Origin: a bacterium | GTDB lineage: Bacteria > Patescibacteriota > Minisyncoccia > Phycocordibacterales > UBA6065 | NCBI GenBank assembly: GCA_030680695.1 | Contig: JAUXUT010000149.1 | Coordinates: 469,768-533,767, forward strand | Direction: 5' to 3' | DNA: 64,000 nucleotides | Shown here: positions 51,724-56,933 of the stretch, piece by piece | How the letters are laid out: each line of letters starts with the position of its first letter | Position numbering within the stretch: the first letter of the stretch is position 1 | Notes under the pieces: model-generated | Databases searched by the model: none | The model's input: the letters and a program-made list of their open reading frames with translations, nothing else | What the model was told of the DNA's origin: nothing | Position numbers and translations under genes: made by a program

Positions 51724-54495
51724 TTAACGGATTCCTAGGAATTTGGCAACCACGCCGATGATTAGGTGAATGAATGAACGCAGCCTGAAAAATGGTGATG
51801 CAATCTGATCAGGCTCTTCTGTATCAATGACATCAGGGACTGATACTGGAACTGGTTCAGACGCGGACGCAATAACATTACCGACGTGAGGCTCTTCAGG
51901 TGTATATATGCTGTCTATAATAATTAATGGATCTTCGGTGTTGCGCTGTCTTGCTCTGCCACTTGCACTTCCTCTTTCCTTTCTTGTTTGGTTGATAATC
52001 GGCTCGTCTATAACTGGCGATACCATTGGGACAAAGTCGTCGTCCTGAATAATCTCATCGATTATTCCATCGCCTTCCATATCGACGAGCAGAGCTGGAG
52101 GAGAATAGGTGTCACCAAAATCTATGTCTACTACTGTGGAAGATGCCATGGCTATATCCGTAAACATATATCCATCAATATCCACCGATATATGCTGATA
52201 TTCTTGGCCATCATTATCTGGGATTTCGTCGACATCAACAGATGAATCCTTAACTATTCTTATTAACCCGGTCCTTTTAATCGCCTCTGGCTCTGGTAAA
52301 GACACGTACCACACAGAACCGAACTGCCGAGCGTCCGCATCTACACCTTCTTCAACCTCTAATGCGTGGGTATCTGAATACAGGTAGATCTCTCGTTTAT
52401 CAACAAGTGTCTCCGGAAGATATGGTGCATCGTCGAACGGGTCCATTCCTGAGTAAGCGGGCGCGCTTAAAACATTTTTAATAAGGTTCCTGACTTCTGG
52501 AACTTCAAGAATGTCTGCGTGGTACCTGTTCTTTGCGAGCCCTCGCCCAGATGCCTCCAGGTCGAAAGTGTATTGGCTCACATTAGCAAACGCTGGCATT
52601 GCTAGTGCGCTATGCAACATAACCGTGCCGTCCCCATCAGTCGAGAACATTGGTTTATAACCGAAGATTCGCCTCCCGTATGACCAACCATCCTGGTATT
52701 TAATCCCTGTCACGGTCTCCCTTCCCCATCCTGCGATCTGTATAAGATTTATGACTGGCGGCACGACCCAATCGTCAAAATATGCGTGGGTTTCAGCTGC
52801 TTTCTGGATGAGGTTTGAATTCAAGATGCTTGGAGAATTAAGGTTCCGAGCATCCGGAGCTGAACGCTCATCACTCCCGGCAAAGAATCCATAAATCTCA
52901 CCGAGCGTCGATATACTGTTGCCGAAAATCTGCCTGAGATTTACGACTGAAGCATGTGAAGAAGACGTGCTAATTGATATTAGAGGCCTCTCGTCTAGTT
53001 CCATATATCGTTGCGATGGAAGCAGGTTGTATGCCGATGACATGTTCTGGCCGAGAGCCCTCGAAGCGGCGGTGGATGCCAATAAAGGTATACCTTCAGC
53101 GAAACCATGAAGAAGCGAGCCTATGGCTTGAGGCGTACCTATTTGTGGCACCGCAACAAATAAGATCCTGTCGATAAGACTCTCTTTGCTTTTGGTCTGA
53201 AGATAGTCTGTCAGTATCTTTGCGACTATGCCTCCATTAGAATGAGCGACAATTCCCACCCTTCCGGTGTACGAGCTGGATGCCATTGATCGTATAGTGT
53301 CGACAAGCGACCCAGGAGATTCATTTGAAACCAGAGACCTTGGATCAAGCCGCCAGTCATATGCAAAGGCTTCCCATCGCTCTATTTTTCCCGATTCTTG
53401 CATTGATTCCATATCAGACAAGAACGAACGATAAATATTAGGTCCCGAATTGTTGAGGAACACCTCCGCTATGACGTCTTGCGGCAACACATACACATCC
53501 TCGATACTATTGCCGAACTCATCAAGATAGAGCTTTTCTACATCCTTATTTCGATTGGGCTCCCAAAGACGGTTCTCGTTACCGTCATCGGAAACATATA
53601 ACCTAGAGGCCTTCAATCCGGGCAAAAACAGGATGCTTGAACAACAGGTTGGGGCGCCGTCTGTCAAAAACGGTAAAACCGTCGCAGAACCATATACATT
53701 TGCACCTCGTCCCCAAGGATGAAACGCGAGGTGATATGGGCCTGAATTATGTCCCCAGTAATTGTTTGGCGCATCCGCGTATTGGCCGTCTTCGACATAC
53801 AACCCATGGTGGCCACCAGCAGCTATACTGCTCCATTCCATGGTGAAACTCGAGTCACCGTTATCTCCACCATACACACTTATGGAATGCCCTGGTATGT
53901 CACTGAACGAGGAACTTGATATCCGCGCGTTCGCCCCGTACACTCCAACCCCCTGAATCATGCGGCGAAGGCTCGTTTCAGTGATATCGATAGATGCCCC
54001 ATCAAACCCCTGGATCGACCTTACACCGTCTATGGTTGCGTGTGTGATTGATATCGTTCCGCCAAAAGACATTAAACTACCCGTGCGCCATAGTTCATTA
54101 TCAGAAAACTGTGAACTTAAAGATGTGGTTGCGTTGGTCTGTCCATCTACAATCAAACTTCCAAGAACGATAATGGAACCCTCCCCGAATATGACCGATG
54201 CTCCAGCCTCAATGACGACTGACGCCCCCTCTTCGATTATTGTCGGGGTTGAGATGATATAAGGACTACCAGCAACGTCCCATCGCATGTCACCAGCTAT
54301 GGTTTCTGGTGCTGTAGTCTGGGCTTCGGCGTTTAAAACCCAAAAGAAACTAGCGATCGACAGTAGCAGAACGAGCACCCTCGCCCTCAGTCTTGGAATA
54401 TCCTGACAAGATAATACCCACCAAGCCGATAAGGATAATCGCGGCAAACGCGAGAGTGAACTTGAAGAACGTCTTGTTGAACATGCATTTATCAT
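51724..54495 (-). CDS. large secreted protein: N-terminal right-handed beta-helix region fused to LCAT/PDAT-like (PF02450-type) alpha/beta-hydrolase lipase/acyltransferase domain, acidic C-terminal region and C-terminal hydrophobic anchor
   Basis: AYDWRLDP (LCAT PYDWRLEP), GRVGIVAHSNGG (GHSxG nucleophile), DGDGTV (LCAT catalytic Asp block), YHADIL (His); signal peptide RLRAR-VLVLLLSIASFFWVL-NAEA; N-terminal 40 aa of track ORF look non-protein-like (see findings). Confidence 0.7.
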   Translation of the reverse strand: MINACSTRRSSSSLSRLPRLSLSAWWVLSCQDIPRLRARVLVLLLSIASFFWVLNAEAQTTAPETIAGDMRWDVAGSPYIISTPTIIEEGASVVIEAGASVIFGEGSIIVLGSLIVDGQTNATTSLSSQFSDNELWRTGSLMSFGGTISITHATIDGVRSIQGFDGASIDITETSLRRMIQGVGVYGANARISSSSFSDIPGHSISVYGGDNGDSSFTMEWSSIAAGGHHGLYVEDGQYADAPNNYWGHNSGPYHLAFHPWGRGANVYGSATVLPFLTDGAPTCCSSILFLPGLKASRLYVSDDGNENRLWEPNRNKDVEKLYLDEFGNSIEDVYVLPQDVIAEVFLNNSGPNIYRSFLSDMESMQESGKIERWEAFAYDWRLDPRSLVSNESPGSLVDTIRSMASSSYTGRVGIVAHSNGGIVAKILTDYLQTKSKESLIDRILFVAVPQIGTPQAIGSLLHGFAEGIPLLASTAASRALGQNMSSAYNLLPSQRYMELDERPLISISTSSSHASVVNLRQIFGNSISTLGEIYGFFAGSDERSAPDARNLNSPSILNSNLIQKAAETHAYFDDWVVPPVINLIQIAGWGRETVTGIKYQDGWSYGRRIFGYKPMFSTDGDGTVMLHSALAMPAFANVSQYTFDLEASGRGLAKNRYHADILEVPEVRNLIKNVLSAPAYSGMDPFDDAPYLPETLVDKREIYLYSDTHALEVEEGVDADARQFGSVWYVSLPEPEAIKRTGLIRIVKDSSVDVDEIPDNDGQEYQHISVDIDGYMFTDIAMASSTVVDIDFGDTYSPPALLVDMEGDGIIDEIIQDDDFVPMVSPVIDEPIINQTRKERGSASGRARQRNTEDPLIIIDSIYTPEEPHVGNVIASASEPVPVSVPDVIDTEEPDQIASPFFRLRSFIHLIIGVVAKFLGIR

Positions 54496-54501
54496 AACAT
54501 C

Positions 54502-55719
54502 TCATCGATTATCGAGTGCCTTAATAAATGCCGTCTTCACAGAGTCAAAATCCATTCCATGTGGAAGAAGTATGTACGGATCAATGAAATGTGGCATCGC
54601 CTGAGAAAGGATCTTGCCCCCAGCATCAATCAAAAACACTGGGTGGTCACTCGTACCAGGAACAACCCCTGCAAAAGCAACGGTGATCGAGGATAGCGGC
54701 GGCAGGATGGTGTCACTAGCGATAAAGAATTTCTTACTCCCATATGCGAGTGTCATGCCGCCGACATTTACTTCGTTTGCATTGGGATTAATAAGTTCGA
54801 CCCTGCCTTTTTCAACAGTACCGATGCTGATATTTGGATCAACAATCTTCACCAACACCTTTGATACTGCAGATGCGCCGAGTAATCGGCTGTTGAGTAT
54901 CACTATGTAATCCCCGGGAAATGTATAGGGATGAGAAGTCATTGTGCCCTGAGCATGAGAACCATCACCGAAAGACCAACGATGTTCGACGGGCGAGGTT
55001 GATCCTTTCGACTTCTTTATCTTGGCCTCGAACAGAAGTGGTGAATTTGTGAAGCCTAGTCTGTCGCGGCCGGAAGTGACTTCGAGTTCAACCACATCAG
55101 TTGACCTGTTTGCGACAGATTGATTGTCATGCGCTGAAACGCCGGACACTGAAGAGGATGCGACATTCCCGACCCCTGAATCAGGCAGATTTTCGACTTC
55201 TGGAAGCTGACTTTCGGACGCTATAGTTGGCCCTCCTAGTGTTGGGGTAGCTGCAATCCATCTTCCGTCATCAGTCTTTTGAAGCGACAATCCGTCGCCT
55301 TGTGCTCCCCATTCACTCGAATAAGAGACTGTGTCCACGTCATTTCCTTCCGGTGAACGCATGACGATGGTTTCGGCTGAAGAAAGAGAAAAAGCGCTGT
55401 CGAATAACAAGCCTGTGTAACCGGGATTATCGATCAAAAACTTCGATGTATTGTCTGCGATAATCGCATAGCCACCAGAAGGAACGGCTAATTCAGATGT
55501 TGCGGTTATTTTGTGCGCCACTGACGCCTCGAAAAACTTCCAGACAGTAAGGTCTTGCGCTGTGGTGCCTTTATTATGAACCTCAATCCATTCCCTTCCC
55601 GTATCCGTTCCTGGCACGTCATACATGATTTCGGTTATTTCGAATTCAGCATGAACAACTAAAGGAACAAAACATGATGCGAGGCAAAAGCACGCCGAGA
55701 TTGCGAAATTTTTCTGCAT
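54502..55719 (-). CDS. secreted lamin-tail-domain (LTD) protein with two LTD-like modules
   Basis: signal peptide; EIMYDVPGTDTGREWIEVHNKGTTAQDLTVWKF canonical LTD motif; C-terminal VELINPNANEVNVGGMTLAY. Confidence 0.7.
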   Translation of the reverse strand: MQKNFAISACFCLASCFVPLVVHAEFEITEIMYDVPGTDTGREWIEVHNKGTTAQDLTVWKFFEASVAHKITATSELAVPSGGYAIIADNTSKFLIDNPGYTGLLFDSAFSLSSAETIVMRSPEGNDVDTVSYSSEWGAQGDGLSLQKTDDGRWIAATPTLGGPTIASESQLPEVENLPDSGVGNVASSSVSGVSAHDNQSVANRSTDVVELEVTSGRDRLGFTNSPLLFEAKIKKSKGSTSPVEHRWSFGDGSHAQGTMTSHPYTFPGDYIVILNSRLLGASAVSKVLVKIVDPNISIGTVEKGRVELINPNANEVNVGGMTLAYGSKKFFIASDTILPPLSSITVAFAGVVPGTSDHPVFLIDAGGKILSQAMPHFIDPYILLPHGMDFDSVKTAFIKALDNR

Positions 55720-55744: not shown

Positions 55745-55780
55745 ACAAAAACCGCCCGACATATGTCGGGCGGTTTTTTG
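55745..55780. terminator. bidirectional intrinsic terminator
   Basis: caaaaaccgcccgac-atat-gtcgggcggtttttt. Confidence 0.6.
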
Positions 55781-55871: not shown

Positions 55872-56843
55872 TCAATAGTTTATCTGCGCAACAATCAATC
55901 CCTGAGCATCATACAACGTGATTGTCTCACGGCTCTGCGCCCACATCTCGCGTGGCTTGCCAAGGAACACGCGCCATTGATTTGTGGCGAATCCTGACAG
56001 ACTTTTGTTGTTTGCTACGCACTGCGCATATCCAACACGCTCGCGAATGAATGTCTTGCACTGGCTACCGATCTCGTCGAAACGCTTGGTGTCTGTCTTG
56101 GTTGGGTCCTGGCATCGGCTCACGGTACGCAGATAGCTGTAACACTGATCCGTCATTGTCCGTACAAGAGGGTCCGACATGATCAGTGGACACGAAAGCG
56201 ATGCGCGCGGGGTGAACGGATATGTATCGAGGTATCCAAGGCAGATGTTTTCACGAAAACTCGTGTTGATCGAAAGCGAGTATCCAGTGAATGGCCCGCC
56301 GGTCGTGACAATTGCCCTGTCACCTTTCTGAAGAACGATGTTTCCCGTAGTGAAACGTCCGTCAGGTGAAAGAAACTCGGTACCGACACCAATGATCGCA
56401 GATTCAGCTGACGGATAAACATATGTATTCTGGCTCGTCTCGATTGGGCGCGAACCCTTGCCGTTCTCGAGCTTCCACCCCGTTATCGATACTGGCCCCG
56501 TGCCACGATTCTGGATAATCACATGTTCTTCGAAAGGCTGTATGGCACTTGAAGCATTCCCGGTCGAGAGTGTCACCGATCCCGCATATGGCGAGCGGCC
56601 CTTACCATCAGTGTTTGGAACATTTGAACCAGAGCCAGTAGAAATATTCTTCGTGAAATCCAGGAGCGGATTGGTATGGCCCGAATACTGATCAAGCGAG
56701 CCCTGCCCCGAATCAGGAATCCTTATGCCTCCTCCCTCACCCCCGAGCGCCGGCACATATTGCGCCATCTTGGCGAGCACAATAAATGCCACGATTCCAG
56801 CCACAATAATAACGAGCGCCGCCTTTAAGAATCCTTTTTCCAT
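55872..56843 (-). CDS. secreted LTD-like protein with Cys-rich C-terminal domain
   Basis: start at MEKGFLKAALVIIVAGIV signal anchor; VIIQNRGTGPVSITGWKLENGKG LTD-like; 6 Cys in C-terminal 110 aa. Confidence 0.55.
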   Translation of the reverse strand: MEKGFLKAALVIIVAGIVAFIVLAKMAQYVPALGGEGGGIRIPDSGQGSLDQYSGHTNPLLDFTKNISTGSGSNVPNTDGKGRSPYAGSVTLSTGNASSAIQPFEEHVIIQNRGTGPVSITGWKLENGKGSRPIETSQNTYVYPSAESAIIGVGTEFLSPDGRFTTGNIVLQKGDRAIVTTGGPFTGYSLSINTSFRENICLGYLDTYPFTPRASLSCPLIMSDPLVRTMTDQCYSYLRTVSRCQDPTKTDTKRFDEIGSQCKTFIRERVGYAQCVANNKSLSGFATNQWRVFLGKPREMWAQSRETITLYDAQGLIVAQINY

Positions 56844-56858
56844 ACCAACATTATAAAG

Positions 56859-56886
56859 CAAAAACCACCCTTGCGGGTGGTTTTTG
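56859..56886. terminator. bidirectional intrinsic terminator
   Basis: aaaaaccaccc-ttgc-gggtggttttt. Confidence 0.6.
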
Positions 56887-56933
56887 CTTTCTAAGCTAGA
56901 CGAATCCTGAGATTGTCCGCCGTCCAAGTTCCG

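Follow-up and report, generated by a model that had tools for sequence, protein, structure and literature searches.

Organization of the locus

The 64-kb stretch of DNA analyzed here (the window) contains, on its minus strand, a gene encoding an exported protein in which a parallel beta-helix is fused to a catalytic domain of the LCAT/LPLA2 type (Table 1). The open reading frame (ORF) predicted for this protein is real, and its ATG lies 6 nt from the stop codon of an upstream gene encoding a secreted LTD-PKD protein. The sole strong intrinsic terminator is located upstream of the LTD-PKD gene; it ends the LTD gene before it (55872-56927) and sets the 5' boundary of an operon comprising the LTD-PKD gene, a small ORF, and the LCAT-like gene. 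No hairpin with a T-run was found between the LCAT-like ORF and rplJ, and a search of this spacer against Rfam at a relaxed threshold yielded nothing credible. The original prediction had assigned each gene its own terminator, which is contradicted by both the 6-nt spacing and the lack of a hairpin before rplJ. Its LTD neighbors were confirmed, as both upstream genes have LTD domains according to Pfam (the domain of gene 55872-56927 scored slightly under the cutoff, at 32.4 versus 34.3 bits), and its S-layer-like neighbor, a protein of 671 amino acids, showed only a PG_binding_1 domain.

The LCAT-like gene has kept its place 5' of rplJ-rplL and near a PG_binding_1 gene across diverged members of the family, which suggests vertical inheritance. 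A gene of the LTD-PKD type was adjacent to or overlapped the LCAT-like gene in 10 related loci, and the relatives P0083 and P0094 encode LTD-LCAT fusions. LTD genes were rejected as universal partners, since they were adjacent in only 10 of 88 loci, all within the closest clade. The low-GC island is not bounded by a direct repeat derived from the tRNA-Leu region.

Table 1. Features of the LCAT-like locus, in window coordinates
Feature	Position	Strand	Residues	Details
Longest ORF, beta-helix/LCAT-like protein	51724..54495	-	923 codons	Stop codon 51724-51726
Signal peptide	54322..54396	-	34-58	n-region PRLRAR, h-region VLVLLLSIASFFWVL, likely cleavage between NAEA and Q; from hydropathy
Right-handed parallel beta-helix	53647..54321	-	59-283	Ends in conserved NNxWG..SGP cap motif
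LCAT/LPLA2-type alpha/beta-hydrolase with cap and insertion subdomains	52456..53646	-	284-680
Catalytic codons	53239-53241; 52630-52632; 52519-52521	-	Ser419; Asp622; His659
Acidic beta-sandwich domain (predicted)	52045..52407	-	697-817	From predicted secondary structure and pLDDT, family consensus, and composition
Disordered acidic Pro-rich linker	51796..52035	-	821-900	pLDDT 30-43; composition
C-terminal amphipathic helix	51727..51795	-	901-923	FFRLRSFIHLIIGVVAKFLGIR; predicted helix 903-920
Small ORF, putative single-pass membrane peptide	54350..54484	-	44 aa	MFNKTFFKFTLAFAAIILIGLVGIILSGYSKTEGEGARSATVDR; overlaps 5' end of long ORF in another frame
LTD + PKD secreted protein, upstream operon partner	54502..55719	-	405 aa	Pfam LTD 1.4e-17, PKD 8.5e-09
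Intrinsic terminator	55746-55779	-		dG -26.7 kcal/mol, z -6.1, T-run after stem

Start codon and signal peptide

The start of the LCAT-like protein is uncertain; the candidates are the ATG at 54495 and, more likely, an ATT (54397-54399) or a GTG (54376-54378) just 5' of the signal peptide. At the spot homologous to the proposed start, locus L001 has TTG, and L012 and L013 have ATG. The NCBI protein record begins at Met70 (854 amino acids), a residue not conserved among the homologues, and the signal peptide is thereby lost. The predicted signal peptide was borne out by hydropathy (RLRAR-VLVLLLSIASFFWVLNAEA, cleaved before Q; Kyte-Doolittle value, 1.98) and by homologue comparison: 110 of 120 homologues had an N-terminal hydrophobic segment, and equivalent signal peptides were located immediately 5' of a conserved mature start, xTxxPExI..W. 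An N-terminal motif, MIxxCSTKLSSNS, was considered as a novel sorting signal and rejected, as it is the out-of-frame shadow of the conserved small ORF.

Intact triad in a catalytic domain of the LCAT/LPLA2 type

The LCAT identity and motifs given in the original prediction stood. The Pfam LCAT profile (PF02450) matched residues 374 to 630 with an E value of 2.6e-15 and a score of 57 bits (gathering score, 21), and it also matched five scanned homologues and, among precomputed hits, nearly all of those listed. The motifs of the family were all present: YDWR at residue 379, AHSNGG at 417 (containing Ser419), DGDGT at 620 (Asp622; DGDGTV in full), and YHAD at 658 (His659). Profile alignment paired AYDWR (residues 378 to 382), AHSNGG, and DGDGTV with the LPLA2 sequences PYDWR, AHSMGN, and DGDGTV, respectively. 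In 88 homologues with 27 to 43% identity, the HSxGG elbow and the YDWR motif (Y379, D380, W381, and R382) were invariant, as were Ser419, Asp622, His659, His418, Gly421, and Gly422. His659 was assigned as the catalytic histidine from its invariance and position rather than from an explicit structural alignment.

A single-sequence search of solved structures returned just marginal nucleophile-elbow matches to Geobacillus lipases, and searching with a profile improved little on this (E value of 0.035 for LPLA2); a comparison of folds was needed. The structure model (mean pLDDT, 83.5; pTM, 0.74) contained an alpha/beta-hydrolase core together with a cap and a membrane-binding insertion subdomain. 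A search of NCBIfam gave nothing meaningful, and no second copy of the domain was found within the window. Taken together, the profile, alignment, and fold evidence gives good support to the view that this exported protein joins a beta-helix to a catalytic domain of the LCAT/LPLA2 type whose triad is intact.

Two features of the sequence depart from the animal enzymes. The mature protein has just two cysteines, C284 and C285, which lie side by side N-terminal to the domain, and the disulfides of LCAT and LPLA2 are absent; conserved insertion and lid disulfides mark the animal enzymes and not the Pfam LCAT family as a whole. In addition, residues 300 to 355, which correspond to the membrane-binding subdomain of LPLA2, are acidic, hydrophilic, and rich in D, E, N, and K, and the family consensus is likewise polar, making direct penetration of the bilayer in the manner of LPLA2 doubtful.

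Regions flanking the catalytic domain

The PbH1-like beta-helix proposed for the N-terminal region was upheld at the level of fold, the model showing a three-stranded right-handed beta-helix, but not by profile threshold, since CASH (PF13229) scored 20.9 bits against a gathering score of 25.9. Many homologues had precomputed PF13229 hits. Across the family, the N-terminal module varies, being a beta-helix of differing length, an LTD domain, or lacking altogether, as would be expected for a targeting domain.

C-terminal to the catalytic domain, a region previously described as an acidic repeat was found to be acid rich (46 D/E versus 13 K/R in residues 691 to 900) but not repetitive, as neither TRF nor self-BLAST detected repeats in it, and residues 700 to 817 are predicted to fold. 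The predicted fold class of residues 697 to 817 is a beta-sandwich, for which there was no Pfam match; it carries a conserved D-x-D-G-D-G-x-x-D-like motif, here VDMEGDGIID, that might bind calcium. A hydrophobic C-terminal anchor, as first proposed, was not found: the terminal helix (residues 903 to 920) is amphipathic (muH, 0.43; mean H, 0.35), contains R, R, H, and K, and shows no clear transmembrane (TM) character. It is possibly an in-plane membrane anchor. Clear C-terminal TM tails were confined to relatives, among them P0003 and P0008, and those of close relatives occupy the same position. The C-terminus, which reads ...EEPDQIASPFFRLRSFIHLIIGVVAKFLGIR, lacks an LPXTG sortase motif.

Small membrane-protein genes associated with the enzyme

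The 44-codon ORF overlapping the 5' end of the LCAT-like gene was present at the same position in loci L001 to L003 and L009 to L013. In its frame, pairwise substitutions at the three codon positions numbered 235/121/344, and amino acid identity was 0.54, compared with 0.39 in the LCAT frame. This pattern points to a conserved membrane-peptide gene, which is a new observation. A programmed frameshift from the small ORF into the LCAT frame was rejected, given that the stop codon of the small ORF was kept in all loci and that the topology of a frameshift product would place the enzyme in the cytoplasm.

Most relatives have, downstream of the LCAT-like gene, a gene for a small four-helix membrane protein of about 135 amino acids. 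This association is also a new observation, and the gene is missing downstream of the LCAT-like gene at the present locus. A strict either/or relationship between a C-terminal TM tail and the four-helix partner was rejected; it proved only a tendency (4/59 versus 6/15), the counts lack phylogenetic independence, and the two features occur together in L011 and L013.

Family distribution and CPR setting

The LCAT-like family was found in at least 510 species-representative genomes and comprised 1,482 clusters at 50% identity (E value, ≤1e-30). Of the informative record titles of related loci, almost all named Patescibacteria groups, and a protein identical to the present one comes from a 649-kb MAG contig. 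The bacterium itself is ultrasmall and probably depends on a host. A CPR origin of the DNA had been proposed, and it agrees with these titles and with several features of the window, namely, a 23S rRNA carrying a group I intron, a 16S gene that is unlinked from the 23S gene and lies 26 kb from it, and a LOOT RNA; the assignment is based on these window features and homologue titles. No fab or pls genes were detected among the scanned ORFs of the 64-kb window, which says little about the genome.

Proposed function and alternatives

In the protein, the signal peptide is followed, in this order, by the beta-helix, the hydrolase with its cap, the acidic beta-sandwich, a disordered linker some 80 residues long, and the amphipathic helix. 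The beta-helix most likely binds a surface glycan, the C-terminal helix would keep the protein at the external surface of the producer's own membrane, and the linker would let the enzyme reach beyond the wall. His659 and Asp622 would activate Ser419 of the AHSNGG elbow for attack on an acyl ester of a glycerophospholipid, and the resulting acyl-enzyme would be resolved either by water, as in a phospholipase A releasing lysolipid and free fatty acid, or by the hydroxyl group of a lipid in a transacylation. The LTD-PKD protein and the 44-amino-acid peptide would be expressed from the same operon. We infer that the protein is most likely a Sec-exported, surface-retained LCAT/LPLA2-type enzyme with which a Paceibacteria-type CPR bacterium obtains acyl chains or lysolipids from host or neighboring cell membranes, the organism being presumed unable to make fatty acids, and we give this reading a probability of roughly 0.55. 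Host-lipid scavenging, as in the original prediction, is plausible. Counting against the overall reading are the acidic, hydrophilic membrane-binding region, the absent disulfides, the weakness of the C-terminal anchor, the missing four-helix partner, and the uncertain start codon with the N-terminus that depends on it.

The same active site could serve offense. As an effector resembling the Tle4-type antibacterial phospholipases, the protein would breach or lyse the host membrane and release cytoplasmic nutrients, with any lipid salvage incidental. We consider this unlikely: the protein carries a Sec signal and a putative tether rather than a delivery system, the Pfam scan of window ORFs revealed no type VI secretion domains (VgrG or Hcp) in those covered, and the triad is intact even though a putative immunity partner is lacking here. 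Moreover, the family looks vertically inherited beside housekeeping genes instead of residing in mobile toxin islands, and the protein matches LPLA2 far better than it does Tle4.

LCAT, LPLA2, and PDAT are acyl-CoA-independent transacylases, and the enzyme could instead remodel the producer's own envelope, transferring acyl groups outside the cytoplasm without acyl-CoA or acyl-ACP, either between lipids or onto a surface acceptor (lipoglycan, lipoprotein, or wall polymer) in the CPR outer leaflet. A C-terminal membrane helix or TM tail that keeps the enzyme at the producer's membrane, the pairing of most relatives with a producer membrane protein that is small and polytopic, and the reported lack of ACP-dependent steps in CPR genomes (PMC7242380) would all suit such a role. 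It is nonetheless rather improbable, as the long disordered linker and the glycan-binding type of beta-helix indicate an outward orientation, the differing N-terminal modules speak for a range of external targets, and there is no known acceptor.

A beta-helix joined to an esterase would suit a carbohydrate esterase as well, which counts against a lipid substrate; a non-lipid esterase of this kind, or a polyester depolymerase, in which the beta-helix binds polysaccharide and the hydrolase strips acyl or acetyl groups, is a distant prospect. That the protein is a catalytically dead adhesin with the hydrolase fold as a mere scaffold would accord with a large beta-helix surface protein having Ig-like and LTD neighbors, but the invariance of the triad, His418, Gly421, and Gly422 in 88 sequences at about 30% identity makes this negligible.

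Relation to lipid acquisition in CPR bacteria

How CPR/Patescibacteria build membranes without fatty acid synthesis is an acknowledged open question. The mechanisms of lipid uptake and breakdown in Patescibacteria are reported as not yet identified (PMC11665869), and the best experimental clue is the enrichment of lysolipids reported for CPR bacteria, which are also reported to lack fatty acid synthesis (PMC7242380); the scavenging role proposed here fits this question. Secreted phospholipases have already been suggested for lipid scavenging in Vampirococcus (PMC8080830), and Giardia, described as showing parasitic adaptations of its lipid pathways, is reported to have four LCAT-family genes under its Lands cycle (PMC5573378). 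The enzymology is of a known type, and that CPR bacteria secrete phospholipases has been proposed in general terms in print; our literature search found no paper describing the LCAT-like CPR family.

Exported, with an intact LPLA2-type active site, and widely conserved (at least 510 species-level genomes and about 1,500 clusters), the family offers a concrete candidate for how CPR bacteria acquire membrane lipids, and its occurrence in hundreds of related species makes the candidate testable. The catalytic domain should be expressible, which opens the idea to standard lipase and transacylase assays. In a far-reaching form that we regard as speculative and improbable, the protein and its small membrane partners (here the 44-amino-acid peptide; in most relatives, the four-helix protein) would form the extracellular core of the missing lipid acquisition pathway of Paceibacteria-type CPR bacteria: using its variable N-terminal module to bind a glycan on the host surface, a transacylase independent of ATP, CoA, and ACP would remove acyl chains from host phospholipids, carry them as an acyl-enzyme, and pass them, as lysolipid, as free fatty acid, or by direct transacylation, to the outer membrane leaflet of the symbiont.

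Comparison with known systems

The closest known proteins are LPLA2 (group XV PLA2; PDB 4x90) and LCAT (PDB 4xwg and 6mvd), which belong to PF02450. The protein described here differs from these solved eukaryotic enzymes, to which its sequence similarity is marginal, in being bacterial (CPR); in its fusion to a beta-helix on the N-terminal side and to a beta-sandwich, a linker, and a helix on the C-terminal side; in the absence of the disulfides; and in the sequence of the membrane-binding subdomain region, which is acidic and not hydrophobic. A sterol or ceramide acceptor is not expected in bacteria.

Tle4 (TplE, PA1510; PDB 4r1d) is delivered by a type VI system, whereas the present protein has a Sec-type signal peptide and is encoded near LTD, PG_binding, and ribosomal protein genes, with no VgrG or Hcp among the scanned ORFs of the window and no periplasmic Tli4-type immunity gene found here; the fold match to Tle4 is also much weaker than that to LPLA2.

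The proposed logic, in which a fatty acid auxotroph draws lipid from its host by means of a lipase that is secreted or surface located, is shared with Vampirococcus Vamp_34_196, Borrelia BB0562, and Giardia GiLCAT1-4 (PMC8080830, PMC8409650, and PMC5573378). GiLCAT1-4 belong to the same Pfam family as the present protein; the likeness to Vamp_34_196 and BB0562 is one of proposed role. None of these proteins carries a beta-helix fusion, and none is reported to be spread across hundreds of Paceibacteria species. Finally, relative to the CASH/PbH1 domains of carbohydrate-binding proteins and sugar hydrolases (PF13229; NosD, PF05048), the beta-helix found here has a subthreshold Pfam score and is accessory to a lipase-type enzyme.

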